NCBI GenBank assembly: GCA_017555565.1
Contig: JAFZGF010000061.1
Location: forward strand, 14,431-78,430
Length of the DNA: 64,000 nt
Origin: Oscillospiraceae bacterium
GTDB lineage: Bacteria; Bacillota; Clostridia; Oscillospirales; Ruminococcaceae
Direction of reading: 5' to 3'
Below are positions 9,917-60,867 of this stretch, one piece after another. The translations under genes were made by a program, and so were the position numbers. The notes beneath the pieces are model-generated. The model was given only the letters and a program-made list of their open reading frames with translations, was not told where the DNA came from and ran no database searches. Position 1 is the first letter of the stretch. Each line of letters begins with the position of its first letter.

Positions 9917-9927
9917 AATGTTACCTT

Positions 9928-30712: not shown

Positions 30713-30873
30713 GGTGCGGATGAAGGGAATTGAATGTCATCTGTTAAAAATTTTCCCAGTAAAATAAAGGAAAATTGGCATTTAAAAATGTATCGTACCA
30801 GAGGCGTACCGAGGGATATGCTAAAGTCCAAGCAGTGATCGAGTGGAGATCGAGTGCCACTCGATCAAATACA
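30713..30873. repeat. Copy B of the ~160-bp dispersed repeat family
   Basis: Direct-orientation copy of 22919-23080. It contains the hairpin aattttcc(30749-56)-cagtaaaataaa-ggaaaatt(30769-76). Confidence 0.7.
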
Positions 30874-30920
30874 ATTAATATCTGTAAAGTTTATAATCGA
30901 CACATAGCTTACGTTCTAAT

Positions 30921-30986
30921 ATCTCAACCCAATCTCAATCCAATCTCAATCCAACCTCAACCCAATCTCAATCCAATCTCAATCCA
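30921..30986. repeat. Tandem repeat, 11 bp x 6 (also readable as 33 bp x 2)
   Basis: atctcaaccca atctcaatcca atctcaatcca acctcaaccca atctcaatcca atctcaatcca. Confidence 0.9.
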
Positions 30987-31058
30987 GCAACAGAATATAT
31001 TTTTCCTATATTGACCACTGTTCCTATATTTATAAGTCAAACCTTTATATAAAGTAAT

Positions 31059-35767: not shown

Positions 35768-36176
35768 GTGGATAAATTGGCTTGAAGGTCATACAGCTAA
35801 AATTTCCCCAGTAAAATAAAAGAAAATTGCGTACTTTGGCAAATGAAGGTGGACTTGAAGGTCATCCACCTAAAATTTTCCCAGTAAAATAAAGGAAAAT
35901 TGGAGCTTTAGAAAGGCGCGTACCGGAAACGTACCGATAATTTATTTCGATTTTATTATTTAAAATTTCTATTAAAGCTACATATCATCATATAAAAACG
36001 GCTTGAATTCCAAATCCGTAAAGCAGAAGTCCAAAATTCTCAGTAAAATAAAGGAATTTTGGACTTTGCCTTTTTTAGAAATCAATAGTGTACTTAAATC
36101 GTACGCAATAAAATCGTACGTGGGTTTGAGCTTCGGATTTTTTTACTTTATTAGTAAAATAAGGGGATTTCGAGAT
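35768..36176. repeat. Cluster of 3-4 tandem degenerate copies (C1-C4) of the dispersed repeat family
   Basis: C1 35768-35836, C2 35837-35940, C3 36001-36120, and possibly C4 36140-36176. Each has the conserved loop (t)cagtaaaataaa(g). In C3 the stem is lengthened and differs in sequence: agtccaaaattc (36028-39) / gaattttggact (36054-65). The paired CGTAC boxes also recur (cgtaccggaaacgtaccg; tcgtacgcaataaaatcgtacg). Confidence 0.6.
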
Positions 36177-38182: not shown

Positions 38183-38257
38183 ATGTCAATCAAAGTTACA
38201 TATAACACATCCATACACATTAGAATAAAATCACAATAAAAACAAGTGAGGAAACTA

Positions 38258-41200
38258 ATGAGAAAAAAATTAGAAATCGGCCAGCAGATAACCCTTATCT
38301 GTGACGGCACTGAAAAACAATTTACAATCAAAAAGCTTATTGGTGACGGTGCAACCTGCATTGCATATGAAGCCAGCCGTATAAACTCAAATGGCATGAC
38401 CGAACATTATCGCATCAAGGAATGCTATCCATACGATGCTGATATTTCAAGAAATGAACTTGAATTGATATGGGTAGATGAAGCTGAAAAGAAGAAATAC
38501 TTTGAAAGATTCAAATCTTCATACCAGATAACCAACCAGCTCAAATATGAAGAAACCATAGGCAACAACATAACTAACGCTATGCTTTGCGAAGGCAATG
38601 GCACAGTGTATTCGGTTATGGAAATTAACCATGCAAATGTATACAGTAATATAAAAGAAACAAGCCTTGAAAAAATATTGGATACAATACTCGTTCTTAC
38701 AAAAGTTGTTGGCAACCTTCATAAAAATGGATATTTACATCTTGATATAAAGCCAGATAATTTTCTTGTAAGTTATGAACCGAATACAAATATATGGTTA
38801 TTTGACGTAGATTCTTTAACATCTATTGCCGAACTGAAAGCTGGAAGTATTAAAAGCACACCATATTCTTTCAGCTATGCAGCTCCGGAGCAGAAATTCA
38901 ATGAGATATCAAAAATAAACTTTTCAACAGACATCTTCGCTATTGGTGCTGTTTTGTTTGAAAGAATTATGCATACTTGTATTTCTGTTGATGATATGAG
39001 TGTGTTTGCTGATTGGAACCTGGATAACAACAGTTTGTTTGACGATATCAATCCAAAAATAAAACGTTTAATTAAAAATATCTTCAGAAAAACTTTGGCA
39101 GTATCCCCTAAAAGAAGATATAAGACTACCGATGAACTTGTTGCTGCTATTGAATTGGCATTGAAAACTGTACAAGAAAAACTGTTCATTGTTTCCAATA
39201 TACCTGCCAATGCTGCACATTTTATAGGTCGTGAAACAGAACTTGCCGCCATTCACAATGAGTTTAAGTCAGGTCAGAAAGCTGTTTTCATCCATGGTTT
39301 TGGTGGTATGGGTAAAAGCTCATTGGCTGTTGCCTATGCCAACAAACATAAAGATGATTATGATACGGCAATCTTTTTGAAATATAAAGATTCCATTAAA
39401 GAACTTATAACTGAAATCAACATCCAGAACTATGAAGGTTTAGAATTCGATAAAAATAAGGTTCTGCATAAGTTGCTGGATAAAAACACCTTACTCATTA
39501 TTGATAATTTTGATGTTGAGATTGACCAGGATGAGTATCTTGATGAATTATTACAGTTAAATACAAATATTCTTTTCACCTCTCGTACTGATTTTTCTTC
39601 TGTTTATGGAGAAGATGTCACACAGATTGATATTTCAAAACTGGCAGACAATGAATTAATTAAACTGTTTAGAAATATTTCTTGTGATAATTCCTCAAGT
39701 GACAAAGATATCGTAGAGCTATTAAGCTTGGTAGAAGGACATACATATGCCGTTGAACTCCTCGCTCTGCAAATGGCTGCATCTGGTTGCTCTTTGAAAG
39801 AGTTATATAGTAAAATTGCTAATGGACTTGACGAACTTTATGGTTTTGAGAAAGTCAGAACCAGAAAAGATGGACGTATAGTTAAGAGGACAATCCCTGA
39901 AATCATTCGTGCGCTTTTTAATGTAGCCAAGCTTAATGAAGAGAGAAAGCAAGTTTTAAGAAATTTATATCTACTTAAATTTTTGTATGTGGATAAAGAT
40001 ACCTACCGCAAATATACAAAAGCAACTACAACTGAAATAAATGCATTGAATGACTTAACTGAATTAGGATGGGTAAGAACAACTAATAATCATTGGTACT
40101 CTTTACACCCTCTTGTTGAAGAACTTGTAAGCAATGATTTACACCCATCTATGGAAAACTGTGAATCTATTTATAACTATATCCAGCATGAAATAAGGAT
40201 GTGTGAATGTTTTGATATTTATTCAGAGTTAGATGAACACTCATATAACAATTCTATTTCGTTCCTTTGCACATTTTTCAACAATATCGACCTGCATGAG
40301 AAAAACAATAGAAATATACTCATAAATTGGTTGTTACAGACAATTAGAGATTATGATGATGAAAATAGTGAACTGTGTATTGGACGTAGCGAAGATAGTG
40401 TTTATACTCCTTTATACAGAAAAATTGAATTGCTTACTCAAACTATTGATTTAGAACCGATAGAGAAATTCAATATCTACTACATTCTGCTGTATTCTTG
40501 GCTGTTGGAATTTCAAATTACATATTTAGATATTGAACAGCAAAATCATCTTAACGAACTTCGTGAAAACAAACTTAAAAAGTATTTTAACCTTTCTATT
40601 TCTGTAATACAGCAATGTGATAATTCTATTACCGAGGAACTTTTAGATAAAGTTTATAGCAGCATTCTCTTTATCGCCGGCAGTATGATAATGCCATCTT
40701 TTCCAAAAGAATTCATAGTTAATCTTTATTTAGAAAGACCTCATACATGGCAACTGGGTTTAATAGCTAAAAACAGACTAGGCTTACCATTATCTGTTGA
40801 AGAACAAAAAGAAATAGATGACGTTAATGCAAATCTCCCTGATGTTTTTAAAGAAGGGTATACGGATGAAGACATTGAAGCTGAAAAAGAATTTAAATCA
40901 GCATTTTTAATGTCCAAAGATAAAGTGCAGTTTGTAAGAGAACTATCAGAGGACAGCGAATGTGCTCCTGTTACAAGAGCAAGTTTAATTGGCGATTGTA
41001 AAGAAGCTTTCTTTGGTGATTTTCAATTCTATCGTTGGTTTCTTAGTTTTTCCGATGAAGACTGGAAAACGATTCAAGATATTTTAAATATCGAAGAGTC
41101 ATTATTATTCTCTGATACTTATGAACAATCAGAATTCTACAATATTCATGATCATAATGACTTGATTTCTCAAAACAGCGTAGAACAATGCGTTGTAAGC

Positions 41201-41623
41201 GTAATGAGACAGCAATATGACATTTTTGAGAACATTATTAATAATATTTTAATATACATAAAGATTGAACTTACTGATTATGTGAATGCTGATTGGCATT
41301 GGTCTAGGATAATAGACCTCAATAATTGGCAAAGAATACATTATCGCCTTATTCGAAGCTTTATAAATATTAATAAAGCCAGTTTTATTCTCCCTTATAT
41401 TTTAAAGATTAATTCTGGCTTTTACGAATATGCCAAACTACAATCTGATTTTGATGAAAAACTGTTCTTTAATAACTACAAACTCATTTCTGAGCTTGCA
41501 CAAAGTGCGTATTTCGAGAAAAATGTGCCAGAAAAATATAAATTGGAATATATGGATATTGAGGTCGAATATGAGTGCAAGATGGATGAATTGTCCGAAA
41601 AAAATTTCATATTAAAAGTTTAA
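38258..41623 (+). CDS. Ser/Thr protein kinase domain fused to a STAND (NB-ARC/AAA16-like) NTPase and a ~650-aa helical C-terminal region
   Basis: Kinase motifs: GDGATCIAYEA (G-loop), HYRIKEC (catalytic Lys), YLHLDIKPDNFLV (HxDxKPxN catalytic loop), LFDVDS (DFG-like), YAAPEQ (APE). NTPase motifs: FIGRETELAAI..., Walker A FIHGFGGMGKSSLA, Walker B LLIIDNFD. The start is set at ATG 38258 (gagga RBS 6 nt upstream) rather than the listed GTG 38246. Confidence 0.8.
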   Translation: MRKKLEIGQQITLICDGTEKQFTIKKLIGDGATCIAYEASRINSNGMTEHYRIKECYPYDADISRNELELIWVDEAEKKKYFERFKSSYQITNQLKYEETIGNNITNAMLCEGNGTVYSVMEINHANVYSNIKETSLEKILDTILVLTKVVGNLHKNGYLHLDIKPDNFLVSYEPNTNIWLFDVDSLTSIAELKAGSIKSTPYSFSYAAPEQKFNEISKINFSTDIFAIGAVLFERIMHTCISVDDMSVFADWNLDNNSLFDDINPKIKRLIKNIFRKTLAVSPKRRYKTTDELVAAIELALKTVQEKLFIVSNIPANAAHFIGRETELAAIHNEFKSGQKAVFIHGFGGMGKSSLAVAYANKHKDDYDTAIFLKYKDSIKELITEINIQNYEGLEFDKNKVLHKLLDKNTLLIIDNFDVEIDQDEYLDELLQLNTNILFTSRTDFSSVYGEDVTQIDISKLADNELIKLFRNISCDNSSSDKDIVELLSLVEGHTYAVELLALQMAASGCSLKELYSKIANGLDELYGFEKVRTRKDGRIVKRTIPEIIRALFNVAKLNEERKQVLRNLYLLKFLYVDKDTYRKYTKATTTEINALNDLTELGWVRTTNNHWYSLHPLVEELVSNDLHPSMENCESIYNYIQHEIRMCECFDIYSELDEHSYNNSISFLCTFFNNIDLHEKNNRNILINWLLQTIRDYDDENSELCIGRSEDSVYTPLYRKIELLTQTIDLEPIEKFNIYYILLYSWLLEFQITYLDIEQQNHLNELRENKLKKYFNLSISVIQQCDNSITEELLDKVYSSILFIAGSMIMPSFPKEFIVNLYLERPHTWQLGLIAKNRLGLPLSVEEQKEIDDVNANLPDVFKEGYTDEDIEAEKEFKSAFLMSKDKVQFVRELSEDSECAPVTRASLIGDCKEAFFGDFQFYRWFLSFSDEDWKTIQDILNIEESLLFSDTYEQSEFYNIHDHNDLISQNSVEQCVVSVMRQQYDIFENIINNILIYIKIELTDYVNADWHWSRIIDLNNWQRIHYRLIRSFININKASFILPYILKINSGFYEYAKLQSDFDEKLFFNNYKLISELAQSAYFEKNVPEKYKLEYMDIEVEYECKMDELSEKNFILKV

Positions 41624-41763: not shown

Positions 41764-42081
41764 ATGATAAGAAAACTATTTAAATTCTTAGGAAACGCCC
41801 TAATATCTCTTTACACAACATTTTACGACATTATAGACTCCATCTTTACTGGGTTTGAACCAGATAACACAAGTGATATCCACTTACGTTCAGACATTTT
41901 TTCTTCAAATATCGTTGGAAATGAAATTTTTAAGGTATTAAAACCTATGTTAGCAGTGACCTTAACAGGAATATATCTGGCTATAATGATAAAGCTATGT
42001 GGTGTAATAATTTCTGGAATGTACACCCGTGGATATTTTTCAATGCTTCGGGAATTTATTATGGAATTCTTCAAAAGATAA
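41764..42081 (+). CDS. Hypothetical small membrane protein (105 aa)
   Basis: ggaga RBS. One clear TM helix (MLAVTLTGIYLAIMIKLCGVIISGM). No recognisable domain. Confidence 0.4.
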   Translation: MIRKLFKFLGNALISLYTTFYDIIDSIFTGFEPDNTSDIHLRSDIFSSNIVGNEIFKVLKPMLAVTLTGIYLAIMIKLCGVIISGMYTRGYFSMLREFIMEFFKR

Positions 42082-42181
42082 AACTATTTCTTTTAGTTGA
42101 TGTACCAAGTCTTAACTAGCAACTATTTTCAAATCCTATTTATCAATATACATACTGATGCTTATAACAAAACAAACCCAT

Positions 42182-42228
42182 TTTAATACCGACAGAAATG
42201 GAACCCCGGCCGAAATTGCGGTCGGGGG
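42182..42228. repeat. Left copy of a ~47-bp direct repeat bracketing the 1206-aa gene
   Basis: tttaataccgacaga-aatggaa-ccccggccgaaattgcggtcgggg. The matching copy is at 46254-46300. The 3' part is a terminator-type hairpin. Confidence 0.6.
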
Positions 42229-42254
42229 TTAAATAAGCGAATTAGTAAGGTTAC

Positions 42255-45200
42255 TTATAGATTATAAATACTTTTTTCAGAAATGTCGGAAAATAAAATC
42301 GTTTTCTGATTTTTATGATAATATTCATTACTTATTACGGGTTCGCTTAGAATAAGGATGTCGTCAACTTTCCAATTCTTTTTTGATAACTTGTAATGTT
42401 CTATAACATCATTTAGATGAGACTTTATCCAATCAACTCTGCGTTTGTGCTTGGATATGTAACATAATTTATTACCATTGTCACAAAAAACATTTAAATA
42501 TTGTTGATGCATTTCATAAGGAGACTTGGAGAAAGAAAAATCTTTGACCTCTCCTACGATTATTTTTCTTCTTCTAGTATCGATTATTAAAACATCAATA
42601 TCCCCTAATGTGTTCCTGTTTGCATCGGCAATCATCTTACCATTAATTTTTTTAACTTTTTCAGTAACGATAAGTCCCTTTATTGTATTGAGTTTTTCGG
42701 CGACAGCTGAATTAAACAGATTTCCACGACTGTTTGATAGTTTACTAATTACCTGCTTAAGCGCTGCACTTTCAGCTTTTAGTTTTCCGTCTTTGATTAA
42801 ATCATATGTAAACATCAAACAATGAAATAATTGCCTATTGCCCCAAACGATGTCTTCGTCAACCATAATAAGTGGCCTTCTAGTGAATGATAATCGCCTG
42901 TTAAATCTCCAAGGCCAAATATCGGTGTTTTTGTATCCTTTTGGAGCAGGTAAATATTCTGGTCGTTCCTTTAACGATAAGTCGTTAATTATTTTGCTGA
43001 TTTTAGATCTTTCAATTCCTGTTTTTTCAAAAATGGTTTCTAGTAACTTTGTAATATTTATTCTGCATATTTCGGATTTAATATCTTCACCGATAACGAG
43101 TAAAGAAGTCACTACTTTTGAAAAATCACCATATGAATATCCATATTCTGCAATGAAAGCGCTATTGAGATCGTCAAAATCAATATTATCATTGCCGAAA
43201 TGATACTTACTAATATGTGGATTGGAGTACTGGGTTAGTCTTTTTATCGCTGCGGAATAAGTGGACTCTGTTAGTTCGATCGGTTGTGTATTATTTATTC
43301 CTACTCGACCGGATTTTAAGATGTTCATTTCACTATCAATAATATTATAGTTAAATAAATCTCCTATCTGTGCCCAGTGAATTATTGCAGAACAAATAGT
43401 TAATATATTTTCATATTCTAATTCACCTAATAATACATTCCCTTTAGGAGGTTGAGCTGATACATACTCCATGAAGAATTTTAATGCAATAGATGATTTA
43501 TTTAATTGATTGTAAGTCGAATTTAATTTGTCAGTTTTTTCGGGATAACATGCAATATTAAAAGCATGTCTTCTTTGCGTAAGCATCATTGAGTACATAA
43601 CCTTCTCTAAATCAAGATATATTTGTTCTATTAAATTTTGTGGATTTAGAGATGCAACTAAAGTTTTTAATTTTTTGTACAAATAATCAACGATAGTTGA
43701 GCATATGGAATATTTTTCATTTTTCTTAATTTCCCCGAAAGGAACCCCTTTTTCTTTAATTAAGAAGTATCCTATTTCATCAGATAGTAGCTGTTCATAT
43801 TCAATAGACACTTTTCTAAAATCTAAATCAATTGGTTTTAGATATGGGTACTCTTGAGCGTTTAGAAAAAAAGCTTTCTTTTTCAGAGGGTTTTCAAAAA
43901 GCTTATCCACTTTATGCATGGATAACGCCTTTGTAGAGAAACATGATATGGATTCTAAAAGGAGAGTAGTTATTGCTTTTTCTTGAGAATTATTTTCGTT
44001 GCTAAATTTGAAATAAGCTTCTGGAGTCCATATAAAAGTTATAATATTGTCTAGAATTTGGATTTTTAATAAATCCTCTAAGGCACTTTCACTATAAGAT
44101 TCTGAAGAAAAATACTGCGTTAAATTACCAGTTAGTTTATGTTCAATTACTATTGAATTATTGTGAAAACTATTTCCTGTAATTATATTTTTGCATTCGG
44201 CAATCCAGTACGAACACATATCAGTAACAGTATGATAGATATCTGATGCTATTGTTGTAGACGTAGAGTCGATTAATTGCCATATGTCTATATTTGAAAA
44301 CTTGTTTAATATATATATGGTTTCTTTATTATGACTCATGTATATATTTCTAGCAGAGTCCAACCGTATCATTTCTAATAAGTATGGAGCATTTGGACAA
44401 TCAGCTAAAAATTTATTTTCACTAATTATTGCTTTGTTAAAGTAATCAATAGCATTGTCAAAACCTAAATAAAATATATCTTTCCTATAATCGAAATTAT
44501 CGTCTAAGTAAAAAGAATATCTATCACAGTAAACTGAAATGTTATAAATATCGCCATAAAGTGTAAAAGGTTCAAGCATATTATACTTGCAATCCATATA
44601 TCGTGGTATAAAGTTTCTATGGGAATGTTCATTTACAGCAATGCAATAGAGGTCAAAGGGAGATAATAATAACTGCCTAAAACTCTGTTTGATTATTGTC
44701 TTATATTGAGTGACTCTACTAAACGAACAGGAAATACAAATTTGATATATTCTATCTTGTGGATAACCTTTTAACTTTTCTTGTATGTAGGCCCACCTTT
44801 TTCCGATTTGAAAATTATTGATTTTTATCAATTCGTGCATATTTTCAAAATTATATTTATTTCCTGAATCACAGAAAAATTGTACAAACAATAAACCATT
44901 ATTCACGACATTTAACAAAACCTCTTTATATGAATCTGTACTTATCAAATCTATTTCTAGTGGTTCTACGACTATTTTTTTGTGGTCTAACTTTTTGAAC
45001 GATTCAAGGCATTGTTGAAAAATATATTCGTTATATGCTTTTATTACATCATCAAAGCAACCATACTCAGCAGCTTTTTTTAAAATATAGTTTATTAAAA
45101 ATGAGCCTAATTCTGAAGGATTTAAAACGAATAAAGTGCTTTCGCTTATTCTTAGAAAAGGTTTGTAATAAAAACGGAAATTTTCTGGATTATTAGTATG

Positions 45201-45875
45201 ATTAAACTGATTCTCTCCAAATTCTGAAATTAATTTTTCTAATTCCTCACTTTGGATAAATCTTTTAAGGAAATCAATATCAACACTTAAAGCTTGTTGT
45301 GCTTTTTTTATGTTTTGGGTGTTGGGATAGTCAATATCAGTTTTTTCGTAGTGTCCTAAAATTTGACGATCATAATGTAAATCTGCACATATTTTTGTGG
45401 AGATGGTCAAAATAGTGTGGGTTATTAGACTTGAATCGTTAATGAAATCTTGATTAAAACCATTTCCATTTTTAAATAGAATGTCTAATAAACCCTGCAA
45501 TCTATAGCCAATATCTTTGTTAATGCCAGAAAAAATCCAATGATTTCCATAAAATAGTATGCGATGGATAAATGGCATCTCAGGTGGATCAATATTCTTG
45601 GCGATAGGGAAACTCATAGAGTAATTGACAATATTTTGGAATTTGTTATTACTGATTTTGGCAGTACCAGAAAAATATGATTTTGGTTTTTCTAAAATAG
45701 AAGCGATTAAAGTATCGAAAACCAATGCTTTATTCTGATTATTAGGAAATAAATAAAGTGCAGATATTTTATTTAAAAAGTCGATGATATCATATTTTTT
45801 CAACTCGGTTGTAATTGAATTAGCGATATCATTTTTGGATGGTTTTTCTAATAATGATGGTAAGTTCTTTTTCAT
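42255..45875 (-). CDS. Large (1206 aa) uncharacterised protein with C-terminal PD-(D/E)xK nuclease motif
   Basis: No P-loop was seen anywhere. The C-terminal segment is ...NSAVAEKL...NTLGDIDVLIIDTRRRKIIVGEVKDFSFSK, i.e. the E...D...E-x-K arrangement of restriction-endonuclease-fold (NERD/Shedu/Mrr-like) domains. The preceding ~1000 aa have no recognisable motif. Confidence 0.65.
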   Translation of the reverse strand: MKKNLPSLLEKPSKNDIANSITTELKKYDIIDFLNKISALYLFPNNQNKALVFDTLIASILEKPKSYFSGTAKISNNKFQNIVNYSMSFPIAKNIDPPEMPFIHRILFYGNHWIFSGINKDIGYRLQGLLDILFKNGNGFNQDFINDSSLITHTILTISTKICADLHYDRQILGHYEKTDIDYPNTQNIKKAQQALSVDIDFLKRFIQSEELEKLISEFGENQFNHTNNPENFRFYYKPFLRISESTLFVLNPSELGSFLINYILKKAAEYGCFDDVIKAYNEYIFQQCLESFKKLDHKKIVVEPLEIDLISTDSYKEVLLNVVNNGLLFVQFFCDSGNKYNFENMHELIKINNFQIGKRWAYIQEKLKGYPQDRIYQICISCSFSRVTQYKTIIKQSFRQLLLSPFDLYCIAVNEHSHRNFIPRYMDCKYNMLEPFTLYGDIYNISVYCDRYSFYLDDNFDYRKDIFYLGFDNAIDYFNKAIISENKFLADCPNAPYLLEMIRLDSARNIYMSHNKETIYILNKFSNIDIWQLIDSTSTTIASDIYHTVTDMCSYWIAECKNIITGNSFHNNSIVIEHKLTGNLTQYFSSESYSESALEDLLKIQILDNIITFIWTPEAYFKFSNENNSQEKAITTLLLESISCFSTKALSMHKVDKLFENPLKKKAFFLNAQEYPYLKPIDLDFRKVSIEYEQLLSDEIGYFLIKEKGVPFGEIKKNEKYSICSTIVDYLYKKLKTLVASLNPQNLIEQIYLDLEKVMYSMMLTQRRHAFNIACYPEKTDKLNSTYNQLNKSSIALKFFMEYVSAQPPKGNVLLGELEYENILTICSAIIHWAQIGDLFNYNIIDSEMNILKSGRVGINNTQPIELTESTYSAAIKRLTQYSNPHISKYHFGNDNIDFDDLNSAFIAEYGYSYGDFSKVVTSLLVIGEDIKSEICRINITKLLETIFEKTGIERSKISKIINDLSLKERPEYLPAPKGYKNTDIWPWRFNRRLSFTRRPLIMVDEDIVWGNRQLFHCLMFTYDLIKDGKLKAESAALKQVISKLSNSRGNLFNSAVAEKLNTIKGLIVTEKVKKINGKMIADANRNTLGDIDVLIIDTRRRKIIVGEVKDFSFSKSPYEMHQQYLNVFCDNGNKLCYISKHKRRVDWIKSHLNDVIEHYKLSKKNWKVDDILILSEPVISNEYYHKNQKTILFSDISEKSIYNL

Positions 45876-46253
45876 AATACACCCCTTAAATGTAATTCAA
45901 AATAATATGGTTTACTACTCATTATGTCCATTGATGCTATTTATAGCTCATATGCATTGTTCTCTGTCAAAGCCTGTTTGCGACGGTTATACATACTCTT
46001 TCAATGCAAGTTGGAAAATTAGTAAAACAACACTCAAAATAAATAATGGTGGTGCCCAGCTGTCGTATTCCCGTTCTTTTTTCAGTTTCTCAACTTCTTC
46101 GGTCGAAAGGTGTTTCCTGCTGGATGAACGGCGATTTCTTACATCATTAAGAATACCATGCACCAAGTCCAAACTAACAAAAACTTTTCAAATTTTATTT
46201 ATCAGCACCCATATACATACGGGTGCTCATAACAACACAAGTAAAAAACTAAA

Positions 46254-46300
46254 TTTAATACCGACAGAGGATGGAAAAGACCGCAAATTTGCGGTCTTTT
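46254..46300. repeat. Right copy of the ~47-bp direct repeat
   Basis: tttaataccgacaga-ggatggaa-aagaccgcaaatttgcggtcttt. The first 15 nt are identical to 42182-42196, and the hairpin is homologous. Confidence 0.6.
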
Positions 46301-46451
46301 TATTATAATTGTTGTAAAATTTCTTTCAGTTCAGGCCATTCACTAGAATATTTTTCTTGTCAAATTGTTCTAATATTATGAGTTTGTTGAAATAATGATA
46401 TTGCTAATATATAATATAAGTTATAATAACAAAATAAAATGGAGGCAGAGT

Positions 46452-48536
46452 ATGGCAACTAACCATCAACCACCGATACGTACAGGATTATTGGATTTTT
46501 TCAGAAATAGTTCAGGTTGTCAATTTGTTATTCCTGTTTATCAAAGAAACTATACCTGGACAGCTGGAAAAGAAGTGAAGCAATATCTCGAAGACTTGAG
46601 AAATGTACTGGATGGAGAATATGATAATCATTTTTTAGGGATTATGATTTATCTTGATACACCCATAGATTTTTCTGCTAGAGAGTTTTCTGTTATCGAT
46701 GGCCAGCAGAGACTCACAACAACATTTTTAACTTTGTACGCTATCAAAGAATTGCTGCATCAACAGGGAGAAGAAGGTCAAATAAGCTCATTAGAAGGGC
46801 AATTTTTGACCAACCCTTATTCAACAGCCAAAATGAAATATAAGCTAAAACCTATGGTTTCGGATGACGAAGTTTATAGACTTATTGTTGAAAATAAGAT
46901 TGACGAAATTGATAACAAAAATTCCAATGTATATAAAAACTATATTTATATTATTGATTATCTCAAAAATATTATCGATAGAGGAAAAACCATAAACGAC
47001 ATCTTAATGGCAATGAATAAATTATATGTTGTCTGTGTTCCGATATCCGAAGAAGATAATGCACAGAAAATATTCGAAAGTATTAATGCGACAGGTGTTA
47101 AACTTACTGCGTCTGACCTGATTAGAAACTTCATTTTGATGGATTTACCGAGTGATATACAGGAAGACTATTATGCAAATTACTGGAGAAAGATAGAAGA
47201 ATATATTTCAAATGATTCTAAGAAACTTGAATTATTTTTCAGAATGTTTTTGGCTGTAAAAAACCTCTCGTTACCGAGTAAAAATGAAATATATCGACTT
47301 TTTGTTAAATGGTTTAAAGATTCAAATAAGACAACAAAAGAAGTTTTGGAAGAGATTGTTACCTATGCAGATGCTTACTATACAATCTATAAAAAGGATT
47401 TAAAGAAAGTTGATAGTAATCTGAGAGATGCATTAAAAGAATATCGACGAATTTTATCAGATATGCCAGCGCCTGCATTGATGGAATTTTATTTGCTGTG
47501 CAAGAATGGTAAAATCAGTGAACCTGTTTTAAGGGATACTATTAATATCATAAATACATACCTCATTAGAAGAAGCTTGTGTAATTTGGATACAAGTAGT
47601 ATTACAAGAATGTTTCCTACATTATTAAAAGATGTGCTTGAAGAATGTAATGGCAATTATATAAATATTATTGAAATATTGAAAAAATATTTGATTGCTA
47701 AAAATGTTGTTAATGCTATGTACATGCCTGATGATGTTCAAATGAAAGAACTTATGTATAATGCTAATATGTATAATTTGCGTTCCACATTGAGAATTGT
47801 TTTTGACAAAATTGAACACAAAGACAACCCAGCCCCAGTTGATTTAAATTCTGTAAATGTTGAACATCTCATGCCTCAAACTCCAACTAAAGAATGGTTA
47901 GAAACATTAGAAATAGATTTAGACACATACCAGAAAAATGTGCATCGTTTAGGCAATCTTACCTTAGCGGCCAAAATTGATAATAGCGCTATGGGCAATA
48001 AGGTATGGGAATATAAGAATAAACTTCTTAAAGAAACTAATCATTTAAATATAAATAAAGAAGTTTTGGATGCAGAAAAATGGACGATATCTGAAATTGA
48101 AAAGAGAACAGATAACTTAATTGAACAGATAATCAAGGTTTATCCATATCCAAAAATCAATAATGATATTTTGATAAAGGAAGAAATCTATATAAGAGTA
48201 AATGGTATCGTAGCGAAAGCTTTTTTCTCTTTGGACGATGGAAGTGTTGAAATAGATACAGGATCCCAGTTGTATAAATTTGAAAATGTAGAAAATTATC
48301 CAGATATAGAAGATATTCGTCAAGAGCTTTTTGACGATGGCATAATTGCTGAAATTGATGGTGTTCTTCAATTTGTAAAACCTTATATTATTTATTCTAG
48401 AATGTCGAATTATACGGCATTGAGTATGGCTGCATCTATTATTTTACATAGTAGTAGAAGTGGCTGGGCATATTGGGAAAACGCCGAAGGGAAATTAATT
48501 AGAGATATTCCTGAAATAAGAAATAAATTTTCATAA
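46452..48536 (+). CDS. GmrSD-family type IV (modification-dependent) restriction enzyme: DUF262 + DUF1524, with DUF4357-like C-terminal tail
   Basis: DUF262 motifs FVIPVYQRNYTW and DGQQRLTT. DUF1524 His-Me finger motifs VEHLMPQ and HRLGNLTLAAKIDNSAMGNK. The tail SMAASIILHSSRSGWAYWENAEGKLI fits DUF4357. The start is set at ATG 46452 (GGAGG RBS) rather than the listed 46395. Confidence 0.85.
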   Translation: MATNHQPPIRTGLLDFFRNSSGCQFVIPVYQRNYTWTAGKEVKQYLEDLRNVLDGEYDNHFLGIMIYLDTPIDFSAREFSVIDGQQRLTTTFLTLYAIKELLHQQGEEGQISSLEGQFLTNPYSTAKMKYKLKPMVSDDEVYRLIVENKIDEIDNKNSNVYKNYIYIIDYLKNIIDRGKTINDILMAMNKLYVVCVPISEEDNAQKIFESINATGVKLTASDLIRNFILMDLPSDIQEDYYANYWRKIEEYISNDSKKLELFFRMFLAVKNLSLPSKNEIYRLFVKWFKDSNKTTKEVLEEIVTYADAYYTIYKKDLKKVDSNLRDALKEYRRILSDMPAPALMEFYLLCKNGKISEPVLRDTINIINTYLIRRSLCNLDTSSITRMFPTLLKDVLEECNGNYINIIEILKKYLIAKNVVNAMYMPDDVQMKELMYNANMYNLRSTLRIVFDKIEHKDNPAPVDLNSVNVEHLMPQTPTKEWLETLEIDLDTYQKNVHRLGNLTLAAKIDNSAMGNKVWEYKNKLLKETNHLNINKEVLDAEKWTISEIEKRTDNLIEQIIKVYPYPKINNDILIKEEIYIRVNGIVAKAFFSLDDGSVEIDTGSQLYKFENVENYPDIEDIRQELFDDGIIAEIDGVLQFVKPYIIYSRMSNYTALSMAASIILHSSRSGWAYWENAEGKLIRDIPEIRNKFS

Positions 48537-48918: not shown

Positions 48919-49173
48919 GTGAGAACAGTGCAAAAAATAAAAGGTTCAAAAGGATTAGGAGAGCACTTGAAAATGCTTCGATTGGAAGCAGGACCAGGTG
49001 TTACTGAACTTACTAGGTATATGCAATTATTGGGTTGTGACATTACCCGTGAGTGTTGGGTGAAAATTGAATCAGGTAAGCACAATATATCACCTGAACA
49101 ACTCTGGGCATTCAAAGAAGCCTTGCATATATCTTATGACAAAATTTTTGAATTTATGGAGGATAAAAAATGA
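48919..49173 (+). CDS. XRE-family HTH protein, probable R-M controller (C) protein
   Basis: 84 aa with GTG start. The HTH is LGEHLKMLRLEAGPGVTELTRYMQLLGCDITRECWVKIESGK. ATGA overlap with the downstream nuclease-like gene. Confidence 0.65.
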   Translation: MRTVQKIKGSKGLGEHLKMLRLEAGPGVTELTRYMQLLGCDITRECWVKIESGKHNISPEQLWAFKEALHISYDKIFEFMEDKK

Positions 49174-50432
49174 CAGAACATGTTGTAGCTATTTTGTATC
49201 ATAAAATTCAGGACTCGGACTTTACTAATATGTATGGTGTAAAAAAGCCTACAAGCGGAGGCGGTCAGACTTATATACAAGCAGCGGGATACAGTCGTGA
49301 AGAGCTTGATAAAATGTTTCGGGATGCAGATAATATATTTAACACTCTCGAGTTTTGGGATGAAAATCGTATTTACCCAAGGAAGAGATATACATTTCAG
49401 GCGTCCGTTGTTGGCAGTACATCTGCTGCCGATATTGAGCTTGCTCCAAGAACAGGAAGAAAGGATTATCGCATTTCAAGACAGAACTTAAAATATCGTC
49501 ATCCCGCATGGCAAACAAACAATGGGTTCCCTGAGCCCAATCGAAATAATAGCGGTGAGTATATTTATGAAAAGAATTATCCTAATATAATTGACAATCT
49601 TTTTGTTCTCATGATAAAAACCATTAGAGAGGATAACACTACACGTTTTTATGCCACTTATATAAATTCCGAGAATATTCCTTCTGATTGGCCTTCAGAT
49701 GTTGGGTTGGAAGATATTTTTTCTAAGAATAAACGTCAAGGTATTATCTTTTACGAGGAACAATATTTGCGCTTCGTCAATGACAAAAATACGCCATTTG
49801 CTATCGGTTCCGCTATTGATATTGAAATTGGAAATATTATTTTACCTACTAATTTTAACGAAACTTCTGATGACGCTGTTGAGTATGCCTCTAAGGAAAT
49901 CTCGATTACTGTGGATGTTTCCAACATAACAATCACGAAAGTAGAAGCTCCTCTGTTGAAGAAAAAGAAAACTCGTTCAGGAAAAAAATTGGGGACCAAA
50001 GATATCAACTACACAAGGCGTTATAAAAATCTCAAGAAGATCGGTGATATTGGTGAACTTTTGGCTATTGAAACGGAAAAAAGGAGGCTTGTCGCTGAAG
50101 GAAGGCCTGATTTGGCAGACCGAATAGAACATGTTGCATGTACAATTGGCGATGGATTGGGTTATGATATTTTATCATTTGAGCAAGTTGGGGCAGATTA
50201 TTGCGAAAAGTATATTGAGGTTAAATCAACAACAGGTAGCAAAAACAAGCCCTTTGATATTACTGCCAATGAAGTTGAGGTATCCGAAGAAAAAGGACAA
50301 CATTATTCTATTTATAGATTTTATGGATTAAGCAGTGCTGCTAAAGAGATGCGATACTATGAATGTCGAGGGCCTATTAAAGAAAACTTCACTTTGGAAG
50401 CTACGGCTTTTAAAGCTTATTACAAAGGATAA
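49170..50432 (+). CDS. Putative restriction endonuclease: unknown N-terminal domain + C-terminal DUF3883 (PD-(D/E)xK-like) domain
   Basis: The C-terminal IGDIGELLAIETEKRRL...GLGYDILSFEQVGADYCEKYIEVKSTTGSKNKPFDITANEVEVSEEKGQHYSIYRFY matches the DUF3883 pattern (GE...E...gyDi.s......iEVK.t......f.ls.nE...a...y.lyr). It is translationally coupled to the C protein and convergent with two MTase genes. Confidence 0.6.
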   Translation: MTEHVVAILYHKIQDSDFTNMYGVKKPTSGGGQTYIQAAGYSREELDKMFRDADNIFNTLEFWDENRIYPRKRYTFQASVVGSTSAADIELAPRTGRKDYRISRQNLKYRHPAWQTNNGFPEPNRNNSGEYIYEKNYPNIIDNLFVLMIKTIREDNTTRFYATYINSENIPSDWPSDVGLEDIFSKNKRQGIIFYEEQYLRFVNDKNTPFAIGSAIDIEIGNIILPTNFNETSDDAVEYASKEISITVDVSNITITKVEAPLLKKKKTRSGKKLGTKDINYTRRYKNLKKIGDIGELLAIETEKRRLVAEGRPDLADRIEHVACTIGDGLGYDILSFEQVGADYCEKYIEVKSTTGSKNKPFDITANEVEVSEEKGQHYSIYRFYGLSSAAKEMRYYECRGPIKENFTLEATAFKAYYKG

Positions 50433-50462
50433 AAAAGCGTGGGTTATCCCACGCTTTTTATT
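50431..50462. terminator. Bidirectional terminator shared by the convergent nuclease and methyltransferase genes
   Basis: aaaaaagcgtggg-ttat-cccacgcttttt. The last codons of the minus-strand MTase lie inside the hairpin. Confidence 0.6.
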
Positions 50463-51523
50463 TTTGTCAGAATGATAATGTATTCGTTCAATTTCTTAGA
50501 AAGGCTACTATTGTTGCTTCTAAATCTAGAGTATTCAATAGTTCTGTATGTGACATCACCAAACGAGGAAAACAGATTTATCAATTCATCTAACGATAAC
50601 AATCCATCTTCACTATAACTAATAATAAACTTGTCACAATCCATTTCGGTGATTACTTTAGAAAAAGACTCGCGAATCTTTGTTTTCGTGCAAAACTTGG
50701 AATGCTGATCCCACCAATCGCGCAACCCGCTTTTTCCTATTGTTTTAGGGAAATCTCCTCGTGCAATCGTTTCTAAGATATGATAATTAGCGGCATATTG
50801 ACGCTTTGTGTAAGGCGGATCAATATAGCATACATCTGCGGTTATGGTAGCGGCAATGTTCTCTGCAAAATCTTGAATGACCGTATTCTCTATGGTTCCT
50901 TCACTGATGAATTGGATGGGTTTTAATACAATTGCTTCTAATGATTTCGCATTAAACTTAGATAGAAAATAACCATATGTTCCAGAAATATTTGCCACAT
51001 CATTAACAGCCATAATCAAAGTATGCTTTAGAACAGATTCTTCTTCTGATGTGATTAAATCATTTTCAATCCATGCGTTGATTTGCTCCCTAATGGCGTC
51101 AATTTTTTTTGCGTTTTGAGATGTAAAGTATTTTCTGCTGGGAGAACCATTGCTAGGGGTCCCATCTGGAGAAAACTCGTTAAAGAAATAGCTTTCTTTT
51201 TCAGTCAATGAATTCAAATATTCTAATGTTGCTTCATATCCAGATAATTGGTTATTTACAATATTTAAGTGATTTTTGATCTTTTGAAAAGAAGGAGGTG
51301 CATCCAACAAGAGTTGTGTCACCAAGTGATGCTTAGAGTAAGTCATCATATCGGAAGCAATCACACGATATCCTTGTTTTCTCAAAGCAACAGACACGCT
51401 CCCTGTACCGGCCATTAAATCAACTACAGTTGCATTTCGAGGCGCTTCTTCTGAAAAAACATCCAACAAAACTGGCAGCAATTTTGTTTTGTTTCCTATA
51501 TACCTATACATATAGTTCTCCAA
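50444..51523 (-). CDS. D12-class (Dam-like) N6-adenine DNA methyltransferase
   Basis: N-terminal YRYIGNKTKLLPVLL (the Dam-family GxK motif), SAM motif VVDLMAGTGSVS, and catalytic motif CYIDPPYTKRQY (DPPY). Confidence 0.85.
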   Translation of the reverse strand: MENYMYRYIGNKTKLLPVLLDVFSEEAPRNATVVDLMAGTGSVSVALRKQGYRVIASDMMTYSKHHLVTQLLLDAPPSFQKIKNHLNIVNNQLSGYEATLEYLNSLTEKESYFFNEFSPDGTPSNGSPSRKYFTSQNAKKIDAIREQINAWIENDLITSEEESVLKHTLIMAVNDVANISGTYGYFLSKFNAKSLEAIVLKPIQFISEGTIENTVIQDFAENIAATITADVCYIDPPYTKRQYAANYHILETIARGDFPKTIGKSGLRDWWDQHSKFCTKTKIRESFSKVITEMDCDKFIISYSEDGLLSLDELINLFSSFGDVTYRTIEYSRFRSNNSSLSKKLNEYIIILTKIKSVG

Positions 51524-53183
51524 TTACTATTTTCATTTGATTAACCGCATTTAATTCTGGAAGCTTGTTAAGCTCATTAATGATAAGGTCTAATTCTTCT
51601 TGGCTTATATCATACAATCTCAAAACCAGTCTCTCTATTTCCAAATCTAGTTGGCGAGAATAGTTATTTTGGATTTTTTGTACTAATTGAGCGATTTTTT
51701 GACACACTTCTATGTTCGAATCATCTACCCTCCTAATAGGAAGTGAGAAAATGATATTCTTAGTTAAATACGGATGTGATTTCCATTCGTTTTCACCATA
51801 CTTTTTGAGGTAGTAATAGTACATAACTCGCGAATTTAAAACACCTAAATAATATTCAAGAGGTATAAGATCATCCTTTTGAATGTAGTTACACGAATAG
51901 ATTGTTTGGCTTATGTAGGTGCTTTCATAATCAATACAAGCATATATTCCTAACCCAGTTTTTCTTATCAGTACCTTGGGTGGATAATATAGCTCTGCGT
52001 TTTTATAATTGATACCATCTACATGGGGGAGTATATATCTAATACCATCAAAACTATAGCGATGTAAATTTTCCCCGACATACATAGGAAGGTATCCAGG
52101 TTTGTTGACCGTAGAAATAATCTTGAAAATATTCGATTGATTTACTGTGGTGGTTTTACCACAAAATTGGCATGTTTTATACCCTGTATCTAAGTGCTTT
52201 TTAGAGTAGCCTTGAGCTGATTCACAGTGTTGGCACTTGACTACGGCACCAGTTTTAGAGATTTCTACCCCTCTGCCAAAATGGAACAACGATTTCCAAT
52301 CAATATGATTGTTAGCGATTTTTTTCAATAAGAACTCCTCTTCCTCGCGAGCATCTATATCGAAAATAAAATTTTGATTATCTTCAAACCTTTTTTGCAA
52401 CACACAGTGCTTTTTTTGCGTATATGTCTCAAAGAGATCAAGAGCGCCTAACAAAAAATTCTTTCGATCAGTTGTGTCTAACCTATAGCATTTGGTTGAA
52501 CTATTTAATGTGGGTGCACTGTTTTTTAAGATAATAATACTCGTTGCTCGGTTGACATCTGGGAATATCTTTTCTCCTAGACGAGCAATAACTCTAATCT
52601 GGGTGTTTTTCACCAAGTATTCTCTTAGTTTCTTGTTTTCACTAGAAAAAAGAGAATCAGGGATAATAAATGCTAACATTCCACCATCTTTAGTTAGTTT
52701 TAAGCACAACTCAATGAATAATACATAGCTATCATATTGTCCTATGTAAAATTCATATCCGGCTTGAGAAAGATCGGTTTTAGAGAAAACTTTTTCAGAA
52801 CTCCAAGGAGGGTTAGCTATTACAAAAGAGATGTTTTGTAATCGGTGACGCCAATAATTTGTTGCAGTCATTTTCTCCGAAGGAATAATTGCATTCTTAC
52901 ATATAAATTGATATGTCGTATCGCTGAATATTCTTTTGTTTTGATCCACTACTCTTTTTTCAATATCCGTTCCTACGCAACAAATAGTTTGCATGTGATA
53001 ATTGTTAAACTCACGAGAGAATTCTTTTAACAGTATCCCTTCGCCACAAGCTGGATCCCAAACCGTTATAGGTTTATCGAAATCCAAAGTCTCTATATCT
53101 GTTTCACTTAACAACAACTTGGCCGTGAAATTTGCCAGCATTTGAGGAGTATACACAACACCATAACCATTTAATGGCATCAC
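51504..53183 (-). CDS. Gamma-class N6-adenine DNA methyltransferase (Eco57I/TaqI-like) with Cys4 zinc-ribbon insert
   Basis: Motif I VWDPACGEGILL. Motif IV FVIANPPWS (NPPW). CQHCES...CQFCGK zinc ribbon. TaqI_C-like target-recognition tail. It overlaps the next MTase by 20 nt. Confidence 0.85.
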   Translation of the reverse strand: MMPLNGYGVVYTPQMLANFTAKLLLSETDIETLDFDKPITVWDPACGEGILLKEFSREFNNYHMQTICCVGTDIEKRVVDQNKRIFSDTTYQFICKNAIIPSEKMTATNYWRHRLQNISFVIANPPWSSEKVFSKTDLSQAGYEFYIGQYDSYVLFIELCLKLTKDGGMLAFIIPDSLFSSENKKLREYLVKNTQIRVIARLGEKIFPDVNRATSIIILKNSAPTLNSSTKCYRLDTTDRKNFLLGALDLFETYTQKKHCVLQKRFEDNQNFIFDIDAREEEEFLLKKIANNHIDWKSLFHFGRGVEISKTGAVVKCQHCESAQGYSKKHLDTGYKTCQFCGKTTTVNQSNIFKIISTVNKPGYLPMYVGENLHRYSFDGIRYILPHVDGINYKNAELYYPPKVLIRKTGLGIYACIDYESTYISQTIYSCNYIQKDDLIPLEYYLGVLNSRVMYYYYLKKYGENEWKSHPYLTKNIIFSLPIRRVDDSNIEVCQKIAQLVQKIQNNYSRQLDLEIERLVLRLYDISQEELDLIINELNKLPELNAVNQMKIVIGELYV

Positions 53184-55192: not shown

Positions 55193-57229
55193 CTATGTCT
55201 CAGATTGATTCTTCTGTCTAATATATTCATTCAAATATTTAAACGGAAATGGCAACACAGTATACTGTCCATTACGTACAAACTCAACAGCAAGAAGTTT
55301 CATCAATTGCTCGAAGAATATTTCTCCACCGATAGATACTACTTCACGGATTAAACACGCATTATGCAAAGATAAATTCAAGCTTGTACTCTTAGTTCCT
55401 ACAAAGTAATATAGTTTATCATAATTATAAAAATATTTTATATCCATCAAAGAGCCAAAGTATTCTTCTTTTATTTCTTTCACTTTAGGTGTTGGGTGTA
55501 ATAATATACCTCGTGTCTGATAAAGGTAACTATTAAATTCTTTTACTACCTTTTTTCTAATGTTTATTATTTCAAGAATTTCACCAATTGTTATTTCTTC
55601 TATATTTATTTCATTCAAAACGAGATATAAATTGGACAATTCTGCTGGCATTTCTTTAGATTCTGATTGTTCCGCAAATTCCTTTAAAGCCTCAATAATA
55701 ATTTCTACATTCACAAAACCATCTTTATCAGATAACCTTAATGCTCTTGCTAAGGTATCAATTTTAGGTAGTGTTGTTTGTTCCGTTTTCATTATTACAT
55801 TTATATTAGACTTATCGTAATATACAAGACCTTCTATATTTCTATTTTTAAATTCAGAATTATACTTTTCATAGGTATCGTATATTTCGATCCATTCATC
55901 ATCTTCTGTGAACTCTTGAGAATCCCAAAAGTCAAATTTCAATAAACCATCTTTAGAAACTGACATTCTATAAAATTTATAAAACTTTTTATTCTTTTCA
56001 CCTGTGTATTTCCAATAAGTTTTCCCGCACACAAATTTTATAGCATTTCTTTCATTCCAGTTAACTAATGATAATTTTTCATCAAATATATCTCCTTTGA
56101 TAAGAAGTTCCTGAATAATTTTTTTGAGTGCGGCATCCTCATTATCATCACTTTTCAGCTTAAAATCTTCTATAGTCACATGCTGAGCAATGCTATATCT
56201 TTTTGAATTTTTGTATTTATCAGAAATATTGTTTTTTTCATAATATTCTTTGTTGTGAATAATACTGATAGCATACGCATCATCAAGATAACGGTTAACA
56301 ATGCATTCTATTCCATAAACAGCCATCATTTTATCTTTTATCAAATTGGTTAGAGCAATAGAGTCAGCATCTTTTTCTTCATCAATTATGCATACACCTT
56401 TTTCTTTTAGAGTCTTTCCATATTCTTTTTCTTCAAAAGAATCATCAGAAATATCAACGCTATTGTAAACAGAATAAGTTCCAAACCCTATTTTGATATA
56501 ATCAGATAAATAATACTTCACATCATCCATAAATTCAGCATATATACCTACTTTACAATTTTGAAATTTCTTGTAACTACTAAAGTCCAGAAAATCTATA
56601 GCATTCTTTTTATTTGGATTCATAGAACGCTTGACATATATCTCGTCGTCTGGCACATTGTCTGCTGTTAATTTTTTTCTTAATCTGCCTGAATTCTCAT
56701 CAAATAAATATTTAGCATCTTTATTTTTTCCTTTAATTTTACTCAATAAAGAAAAGGTCTCTATATTCAACTTCAAGTAATTATCTTTTGAAAGAGAAAC
56801 CAAGATTGCAAAAAAGGTGTTCTTTTTCATAAATTCTTCTCTAAAATAATAGAGTTTCCCAGAAATGTTATTGAACTTCATTTCCTTTGTAGTTGGTGAG
56901 CCAAGCGTATTAAATAATAATTGTGCTAACACATTATCATAAATACTTTTACTTTGGGTGATGTCAACTTTATTAATGATTGATTCTGGATCTTCCAGCT
57001 CTAATGCAGCTTTAAAACTAGTGTAGTTTACTGTGCCTTTATCAAACATTACATACCATTCATTTCCCCAATTATAAACGACTGATTTAGCTAAAAAATC
57101 CTGACTACTAATGTCTAAAATATTACTTTTAAAGTAATTGCCCTTCTCTTTAGAAACTCTGAATATATCAAAGTCTCTGTCAATATTTTCACGATTAAAA
57201 TCGTAATTAAGCTTATTACAATAAATCAT
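55193..57229 (-). CDS. 678-aa partner of the helicase-nuclease; DdmE-like (pAgo-like) by size and synteny only
   Basis: Its start overlaps the helicase stop (TAATG). No NTPase or nuclease motif was seen. Length and position match DdmE (~690 aa), which follows DdmD in Vibrio cholerae. The C-terminal ...QYTVLPFPFKYLNEYIRQ is reminiscent of the PIWI C-terminal P-x-P-x-x-Y-A/L segment (weak). Confidence 0.4.
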   Translation of the reverse strand: MIYCNKLNYDFNRENIDRDFDIFRVSKEKGNYFKSNILDISSQDFLAKSVVYNWGNEWYVMFDKGTVNYTSFKAALELEDPESIINKVDITQSKSIYDNVLAQLLFNTLGSPTTKEMKFNNISGKLYYFREEFMKKNTFFAILVSLSKDNYLKLNIETFSLLSKIKGKNKDAKYLFDENSGRLRKKLTADNVPDDEIYVKRSMNPNKKNAIDFLDFSSYKKFQNCKVGIYAEFMDDVKYYLSDYIKIGFGTYSVYNSVDISDDSFEEKEYGKTLKEKGVCIIDEEKDADSIALTNLIKDKMMAVYGIECIVNRYLDDAYAISIIHNKEYYEKNNISDKYKNSKRYSIAQHVTIEDFKLKSDDNEDAALKKIIQELLIKGDIFDEKLSLVNWNERNAIKFVCGKTYWKYTGEKNKKFYKFYRMSVSKDGLLKFDFWDSQEFTEDDEWIEIYDTYEKYNSEFKNRNIEGLVYYDKSNINVIMKTEQTTLPKIDTLARALRLSDKDGFVNVEIIIEALKEFAEQSESKEMPAELSNLYLVLNEINIEEITIGEILEIINIRKKVVKEFNSYLYQTRGILLHPTPKVKEIKEEYFGSLMDIKYFYNYDKLYYFVGTKSTSLNLSLHNACLIREVVSIGGEIFFEQLMKLLAVEFVRNGQYTVLPFPFKYLNEYIRQKNQSET

Positions 57230-60708: not shown

Positions 60709-60793
60709 AATTAAAATCCTTTCTGTTCATATTTATTAAATTAAAGTTCTTTATTTTTATGATATGCCTTTAATTGCTTAAACTCAATATGCA

Positions 60794-60863: not shown

Positions 60864-60867
60864 CAAA

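Follow-up and report, generated by a model that had tools for sequence, protein, structure and literature searches.

The genome of an Oscillospiraceae bacterium (assembly GCA_017555565.1) contains a stretch of 64,000 nucleotides (contig JAFZGF010000061.1, positions 14,431 to 78,430; hereafter the window, numbered from its first letter) in which a large minus-strand gene lies between two direct repeats. This locus raises two questions: to which family does the encoded protein of 1206 amino acids belong, and do the repeats delimit the piece of DNA on which its gene was inserted? A preliminary description, made from the sequence alone, presented the protein as an orphan nuclease and the repeats as the insertion footprint of a 4.1-kb segment. 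We find that the protein is a divergent member, from an Oscillospiraceae clade, of the anti-phage family Upx, and thus a new member of an already known family. As for the two repeats, they do not enclose a single inserted cassette but form the downstream ends of two separate units. The combination of both, a divergent Upx nuclease with repeats that represent the downstream-end modules of separate transferable defence units, is the reading that we favour with good confidence. The Upx gene and its parts are located as follows.

42255 to 45875, minus strand: Upx-family anti-phage defence gene (1206 amino acids, ATG start, stop codon included in the coordinates)
42543 to 42605, minus strand: catalytic core of the C-terminal PD-(D/E)xK nuclease, from G1091-D1092-I1093-D1094 to E1109-V1110-K1111
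43956 to 45875, minus strand: N-terminal and middle region (residues 1-640), modelled as the equivalent of the NTD (N-terminal domain) plus the MD (middle domain) of the Salmonella protein SeUpx; putative phage-protein sensor
45902 to 45930, minus strand: promoter-like site for Upx (TGGACA-17-TATTAT, 10 of 12 consensus matches, a consensus match alone)

As the preliminary description stated, there is one large minus-strand gene between the repeats, and its open reading frame (ORF) is the sole long one there. It is preceded directly 5' of the ATG by the ribosome-binding site (RBS) AAGGGG. The product is entered at NCBI as MBR5874732.1, a "hypothetical protein" from an Oscillospiraceae metagenome-assembled genome. 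A Pfam scan at E <= 0.01, with a release without PF28173, returned no family, nucleoside triphosphatase (NTPase) or other, in line with the lack of an NTPase motif noted earlier. The Upx model of PADLOC matches the protein with E = 5.6e-27, and the NCBIfam model NF042954 (Upx_antiphage, "anti-phage protein Upx") with E = 9.2e-30, residues 529-1177 being aligned with profile positions 548-1215 of 1240. The Pfam family PF28173 ("Upx-like") is precomputed on this protein and on eight database relatives (9/9 clade members). In an exhaustive phmmer search (single-sequence query against 1.84 billion representatives), 1,907 relatives were detected at E <= 1e-3, 707 of them with E <= 1e-30; most have 1150-1280 amino acids and match end to end. 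The Bacillota sub-clade is small, with 9 clusters at 90% identity in a word-indexed search, and no Upx was found in IMG/VR.

In a sequence search of the PDB, the sole match is 9wuf_A, the electron cryo-microscopy structure of SeUpx, with E = 2e-12 for the single sequence and E = 4.8e-27 for a profile of nine sequences. In this alignment D1094, E1109 and K1111 correspond to D1161, E1176 and K1178 of SeUpx, the spacing between D and E is of 15 residues in both proteins, and the three residues are invariant in all nine clade members. They belong to the C-terminal sequence GDIDVLIIDTRRRKIIVGEVKD, in which a PD-(D/E)xK motif had rightly been recognised. The first ~1000 residues, said earlier to match nothing, are the N-terminal and middle domains of Upx, since they match SeUpx by profile and by fold. 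With hhalign, residues 18-1202 align with residues 30-1241 of a 1272-amino-acid Upx-like representative (probability 100%, E = 9.5e-66, 1162 aligned columns). The AlphaFold2 model of residues 1-640 (predicted local distance difference test, pLDDT, 71.3) matches 9wuf in Foldseek with E = 2.9e-17 and TMq 0.51, and the model of residues 600-1206 (pLDDT 83) with E = 3.4e-22 and TMq 0.60. For each half, 9wuf is the only PDB match with E <= 0.001, and these fold comparisons therefore point to Upx and not to Shedu, NERD or Mrr_cat. With the PADLOC, NCBIfam and PF28173 matches, the structure 9wuf and the 1,907 relatives, the designation as an orphan was abandoned.

The Upx family is reportedly a product of the screen of Gao et al. 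published in 2020. It was first reported before 2026 (refs 17, 19 and 20 in PMC13601566), and its structure and mechanism were characterised in 2026 (PMC13099982, PMC13601566). The toxicity of SeUpx, HpUpx and PbUpx is triggered by phage large terminases, the ATPase domain of which is by itself sufficient, and AlphaFold 3 models suggest that the N-terminal Upx sensor is threaded by the unfolded ATPase core (PMC13601566). SeUpx and HpUpx are just 16% identical, and the substitution E1176A in SeUpx abolishes both defence and toxicity (PMC13601566). The SeUpx structure is divided into the NTD (residues 1-515), the MD (516-714) and a C-terminal domain (CTD, 715-1272); D1161, E1176 and K1178 are named as catalytic residues, and the activity is that of a Mg2+-dependent 3'-5' exonuclease on single-stranded DNA (PMC13099982). 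An extra, atypical nuclease site, activated by the phage protein gp16, is proposed in the NTD, with the residues D122, D127, R129, E147 and D173 (PMC13099982). By analogy with these characterised homologues, the 1206-amino-acid protein would be a single-gene defence protein with a large N-terminal sensor and a C-terminal PD-(D/E)xK nuclease. Its N-terminal and middle region would bind a phage protein, the likeliest target being the ATPase domain of the large terminase, and the binding would release the Mg2+-dependent nuclease, leading to DNA degradation and abortion of the infection.

The second question concerns the repeats and the small ORF beside the right one.

42098 to 42233, minus strand: left repeat copy (L), 3' flank module of the Upx unit, ending ...GACTTGGTACA at 42101
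46159 to 46304, minus strand: right repeat copy (R), terminus of the GmrSD-side segment, ending ...GACTTGGTGCA at 46159
45987 to 46172, minus strand: ORF of 61 codons with a TTG start, 5'-truncated remnant of a 74-codon gene

The repeats had been described as direct repeats of ~47 bp with an identical 15-mer and homologous terminator hairpins. The 15-mer TTTAATACCGACAGA is present at 42182 and 46254, with no other mismatch-free occurrence in the window, and the direct repeats are real. They are about three times longer than stated, extending over ~42098-42233 for L (~136 bp) and 46153/46159-46304 for R (146-152 bp), as determined by alignment, blastn, nhmmer profile and covariance model. With one copy as query against the window, blastn recovered the other at E = 2.5e-15, and a 25-nt degenerate core pattern gives 2 matches for 0.00 expected. 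Read on the Upx strand, the module is composed of a GC-rich terminator hairpin, then of an AT-rich body of 105-120 bp with a second hairpin, and ends with ...GACTTGGT(G/A)CA. L contains a bidirectional terminator hairpin (~42203-42228) and a body of ~105 bp with its second hairpin at 42142-42159; in R, an intrinsic terminator hairpin at 46274-46301 is combined with a ~115-bp body, whose second hairpin is at 46204-46227.

One more copy was detected, in the locus L004, directly 3' of the gene of P0002, an Upx 70% identical to that of the window, among unrelated neighbours. The homology between the window and L004 forms a single block that runs from 45883 (8 nt 5' of the ATG) through the ORF and the L module to the module end at 42101. 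The gap-free identities are of 82% between L and R, 82% between L and L004 and 90% between R and L004 (88-90% for R against this 3' module of P0002), for 77% in the gene itself. A non-coding stretch thus shows at least the same degree of conservation as a gene whose products are 70% identical, which argues that the module is under constraint or was exchanged more recently.

It could be supposed that the repeats are generic terminators or a chance similarity of AT-rich sequences, the protein being a housekeeping or orphan nuclease. The DNA is indeed AT-rich, and the arms GACCGCA...TGCGGTC of the R terminator are the same as those found after the Upx genes of P0002 and of P0003 (locus L005). Against this stand the similarity itself, which continues for ~110 bp past the hairpin, and the absence of module copies in the window beyond L and R. 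With the pattern GTCGGTATT..GTATGTATA..TTTGAA, GTDB genomes yielded 3 hits, JGI metagenomes 4 and IMG/VR none, and every hit was a chance match according to the nhmmer profile; two further patterns gave only chance matches in IMG/VR, and blastn of the module against plasmid and phage collections gave nothing. The protein, moreover, is an Upx found in variable contexts. With three distinct copies found across the searches, the view of the repeats as more than generic terminators was borne out, and the generic explanation, refuted by these results, is given a nearly negligible probability. The 3' flank of the P0003 gene was also considered as a diverged module copy and rejected: its local scores are within the shuffled null and control flanks behave alike, the covariance model gives just 24 bits, similar to reverse-strand matches over the palindromic terminator, and only the terminator arms are common.

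Beside the terminator hairpins, a match of 17/18 nt, TAATTGTTG(G)TAAAATTT, was observed at 46308-46324 (plus strand) of the window and at 4996-5013 (plus strand) of L004. It is inverted relative to the module and marginal (E = 0.02 for a comparison of 145 x 211 nt).

The relation of the repeats to the Upx gene is decided by strain variants. The proteins P0159 and P0160, from the same 90%-identity cluster as the window Upx, are encoded on three independent contigs (L030, L031 and L032) from three sequencing runs. From the STAND gene to 46160, a stretch that includes the 105-amino-acid gene, the L module and Upx with its leader of 277 nt, these contigs are 98-99% identical to the window. Past this position they are unrelated to the window: the L copy is present and the R copy is absent. 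The breakpoint 46159/46160 abuts the last base of R (46159), which was defined independently by the homology between R and L004. Since these strains carry the Upx unit without R and diverge at the distal end of R, the right copy belongs to the GmrSD-side segment and not to the Upx unit.

The same contigs explain the small ORF, for which the preliminary description gave 61 codons and a TTG start. It does exist at 45987-46172, but the comparison with L030 identifies it as the remnant of a gene of 74 codons. In L030 this gene is intact at 3569-3793, with the RBS AAGGAG and an ATG start, and the junction falls inside it. Its product begins with MKDFHKFGSKSSSYSHYQGILNDVRNRR... and is a small protein with a hydrophobic C-terminal segment. 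The window and L030 versions are identical from GILNDVRNRR... onward, and in the window the R module replaces approximately the first 17-18 codons and the RBS. Because R replaces the start of a gene that is intact in L030, the L030 arrangement is the older state at the right junction, and it was the arrival of the GmrSD-side segment that truncated the 74-codon gene. In the variant strains, the region directly 5' of Upx (L030 2968-3793) contains a series of same-strand small genes of 44, 73, 56 and 74 amino acids, the last of which is the gene truncated in the window. Several of them encode a polar N-terminus and a hydrophobic C-terminal segment, and none of the four has a Pfam match.

These observations bear directly on the view in which site-specific recombination inserted the 4.1-kb segment, Upx and small ORF included, as one cassette, the repeats being a duplicated or hybrid recombination site of the integron attC kind or a target duplication. 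Such a cassette would account for repeats of the same orientation flanking a single defence gene, for the possibility to fold each copy as an imperfect hairpin and for the presence of Upx in at least three unrelated contexts, which indicates that Upx moves. However, the strain variants, with the identical Upx unit, have the left copy only, and their breakpoint is where the right copy has its distal end. Between the right copy and Upx there is a truncated gene (275 nt), and the right copy shares 90% identity with the module of another Upx lineage but 82% with the left copy. By eye, no R''/R' consensus boxes of attC were seen, and no integrase or recombinase gene was detected among the scanned ORFs of the window. 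An empty site, the check proposed in the preliminary description, was not found: the layout is the same in all 8 contigs with the exact 105-amino-acid protein and in all 7 with the exact GmrSD protein. The single-cassette explanation, and with it the footprint claim, is thus largely refuted by the comparison with L030-L032, and we consider it very improbable.

In the reading that we favour, transferable defence-gene units of this lineage have the module of ~140-150 bp at their downstream end. L is the 3' end of the Upx unit itself, and R the end of a different segment that was joined 5' of Upx and cut into the 74-codon gene. That Upx moves as a single unit follows from the unrelated neighbourhoods in which its close and distant relatives are found. 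The module is a discrete boundary at the DNA level, because its end coincides with three independent junctions: L with the side of the 105-amino-acid gene, the L004 copy with the side of an esterase gene, and R with the truncated 74-codon gene. The closest likeness of R is to the 3' module of another Upx lineage; as judged from this likeness, R is probably what a second Upx cassette, formerly in tandem with the present one, has left behind. The association of Upx with a second Upx has been reported (PMC13601566).

The module might also do more than mark an end. With its terminus ...GACTTGGTRCA, it may be the functional end of a form of defence-gene movement in Oscillospiraceae that has not been described, and in this case it could act as a recombination or transposition end for an enzyme whose gene lies elsewhere, or serve as a small RNA as well. 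We regard this proposal as a tentative one, with a low probability. No inverted copy of the terminal 18-mer is present in the window, which rules out a terminal inverted repeat partner there, and inspection by eye revealed no convincing attC boxes, dif/Xer sites or rolling-circle nick sites. If the proposal is true, the module would explain the shuffling of single-gene systems such as Upx within defence islands.

The structure of the module suggests another explanation, in which the repeats are paralogous plus-strand genes for small RNAs of ~110-150 nt, with a central stem-loop and an intrinsic terminator at the end, either derived from a 3' untranslated region or independent, and regulating Upx or other island genes. 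The two hairpins of each copy are better than those of shuffled sequences (plus-strand z = -5.3 for R and -4.5 for L004). Both are kept by compensatory changes, with 4 pairs changed on both sides and 94% of cells paired for 28-49% in slid controls; with three sequences, too few for covariation statistics, and 10/500 shuffles equal to the observed values, this maintenance is suggestive. The T-run terminator of R is situated between divergent genes, a place where no mRNA would be expected to end; the conservation of the non-coding sequence equals or exceeds that of the adjacent coding gene; and no conserved ORF was recognised by eye in the module copies, start codon and frame not being conserved in L004. 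On the other side, no promoter is conserved in sequence or spacing across the three copies (a plausible plus-strand -35/-10 spacing is found in L alone), the hairpins are about equally good on either strand, and no match to Rfam 15 was obtained at the gathering thresholds, only sub-threshold noise with E >= 0.6. The sharp distal end at DNA recombination junctions also indicates a feature of the DNA. We regard small-RNA genes as an unlikely explanation of the repeats.

Several points nevertheless weigh against the combination of a divergent Upx with end modules of separate units. The identity with SeUpx is just 13-16%, and the NCBIfam score of 102.6 bits is far under the equivalog cutoff of 1900 bits, so that trigger and substrate could differ. 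The activating phage protein is itself not the same in the two papers of 2026, being gp16 in one (PMC13099982) and the terminase in the other (PMC13601566). The proposed second nuclease site of SeUpx has different residues opposite it in a weak alignment: a weak collinear profile match pairs residues 38-171 with SeUpx 54-181, and in this alignment of 8 bits D122, D127, R129 and E147 face L107, N111, W113 and D131. Concerning the repeats, three distinct module copies are known (L, R and that of L004), no remnant of a second Upx was detected when P0001 and P0002 were compared by tblastn with the Upx-masked window, and there is no recombinase, integrase or transposase gene among the scanned window ORFs.

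From the same weak alignment, the N-terminal site, and with it the "dual nuclease" feature of SeUpx, is probably not conserved in the 1206-amino-acid protein. In the N-terminal hhalign alignment, read by eye, the 1272-amino-acid relative has an Asp at the position of D127 and a Leu at that of R129. The C-terminal triad and the overall fold look family-wide in Upx, whereas the N-terminal nuclease site looks, from these sequence comparisons, specific to Salmonella. A name and a testable mechanism can now be assigned to a protein labelled hypothetical at NCBI, and a very divergent Bacillota clade is added to Upx, which can help to separate the family-wide features from the Salmonella-specific ones. 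Such mild novelty as there is lies in the repeated end module. A non-coding module with a sharp end at three independent recombination junctions, one of which truncates a gene, is a small and concrete clue to the gene-by-gene assembly of defence islands; as only three copies are known, it should be taken as a lead rather than a result.

The Upx gene, which possesses a promoter-like site, an RBS and a terminator of its own, is located in an AT-rich island that extends from ~31 kb to at least 62 kb, with a GC content of 0.28-0.35 for 0.40-0.45 in the adjacent lacZ/galT block. The ordinary chromosomal genes of the window encode LacZ, GalT, an MFS transporter, an AraC regulator and cell-envelope glycosyltransferases. 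The island encodes SLFN/AlbA, DUF3800 and ApeA proteins, a kinase-NB-ARC STAND protein, Upx, GmrSD, a NOV_C protein, two methyltransferases, a ResIII helicase-like protein and a WYL regulator. The STAND gene (38246-41623, plus strand) encodes a protein of 1125 amino acids in which a long C-terminal region accompanies a protein kinase and an NB-ARC/STAND NTPase; the PD-T4-6 and MkoA kinase models match it, whereas none of the 25 PADLOC families listed for it is an Avs. An occasional association of Upx with a split-TPR Avs1 has been reported (PMC13601566). The STAND gene is followed by an ORF of 105 amino acids with a hydrophobic stretch (41764-42081, plus strand), convergent with Upx, and both are linked to Upx in the two strain types.

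On the other side of Upx, a GmrSD-type type IV restriction enzyme with an extra C-terminal DUF4357 (46452-48536, plus strand) is followed by a NOV_C protein similar to PDC-S36 (49170-50432, plus strand). Two adjacent DNA methyltransferases, of the D12 class and of the Eco57I/TaqI_C type, are encoded at 50444-53183 (minus strand), with no obvious cognate endonuclease between them. The region 55193-60708 (minus strand) encodes a protein of 678 amino acids without a Pfam match and one of 1159 amino acids with a short ResIII helicase match only; both genes adjoin that of a WYL/WCX regulator similar to BrxR (60868-61860, minus strand). Together, the genes of 55193-61860 look like an uncharacterised defence operon under WYL control. 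Outside the island, three minus-strand genes at 4994-11793 form a possible second, smaller defence cluster: a protein of 1112 amino acids with TIR-domain and beta-propeller (WD40-like) matches (4994-8332), a protein of 520 amino acids with ion-channel and RyR-domain matches (8354-9916) and a protein of 621 amino acids without a Pfam match (9928-11793).

The window also contains an intergenic repeat family of ~60-155 nt that is unrelated to the module (22922-23077, 30716-30872, 35768-35829, 35841-35937 and 36037-36067). Its core, TTCCCAGTAAAATAAAGGAAAATTGG, is preceded by a GGATGA...TCATCC hairpin and has no Rfam match. The copies at 30.7 and 35.8 kb flank the SLFN/DUF3800/ApeA block, and that at 30.7 kb is situated at the drop in GC content, which is the left edge of the defence island. 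Beside this copy, just inside the island edge, a tandem array of ~8 copies of the 11-nt unit CTCAATCCAAT occupies 30912-30997.

Among known systems, integron cassettes (an ORF with its attC) resemble the Upx unit in having a structured, promoter-independent non-coding module 3' of a transferable gene, with a sharp end at recombination junctions, and, as with other repeat-bounded modules, a gene can come to lie between two direct copies. Unlike integron cassettes, the locus has no R''(RYYYAAC)...R'(GTTRRRY) core sites in either orientation by eye, and no integrase was found in the window; a promoter-like site of its own belongs to the Upx unit, whose module starts with a classical intrinsic terminator; three copies are known, R is separated from Upx by a truncated gene, and the neighbouring genes are in mixed orientations, contrary to those of cassette arrays. 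With Shedu (SduA, DUF4263) and the NERD-type nucleases, the protein has in common a C-terminal PD-(D/E)xK domain and a variable N-terminal region. The likeness to them proposed earlier holds as far as a single-gene defence nuclease in a defence island is concerned; the protein is, however, a divergent Upx, with no Pfam match to DUF4263, NERD or Mrr_cat at E <= 0.01 and no such structure among the significant fold matches. The UniRef entry of one clade member is labelled "NERD domain-containing protein", a label of the source that was not reproduced by our domain search. The closest known system is Upx (SeUpx of Salmonella enterica NCTC6026, PDB 9wuf; HpUpx; PbUpx), as represented by the models PADLOC PDLC02221, NCBIfam NF042954 and Pfam PF28173. 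Here the 3' non-coding module is a difference, being present in this lineage and not found after more distant Upx genes. What is shared comprises a single polypeptide of ~1200-1270 amino acids with the NTD-MD-CTD architecture and without an NTPase domain, collinear homology over the full length with, in the predicted models, the same fold in both halves, a C-terminal D...ExK triad of identical position and spacing, and a stand-alone gene inside a defence island.

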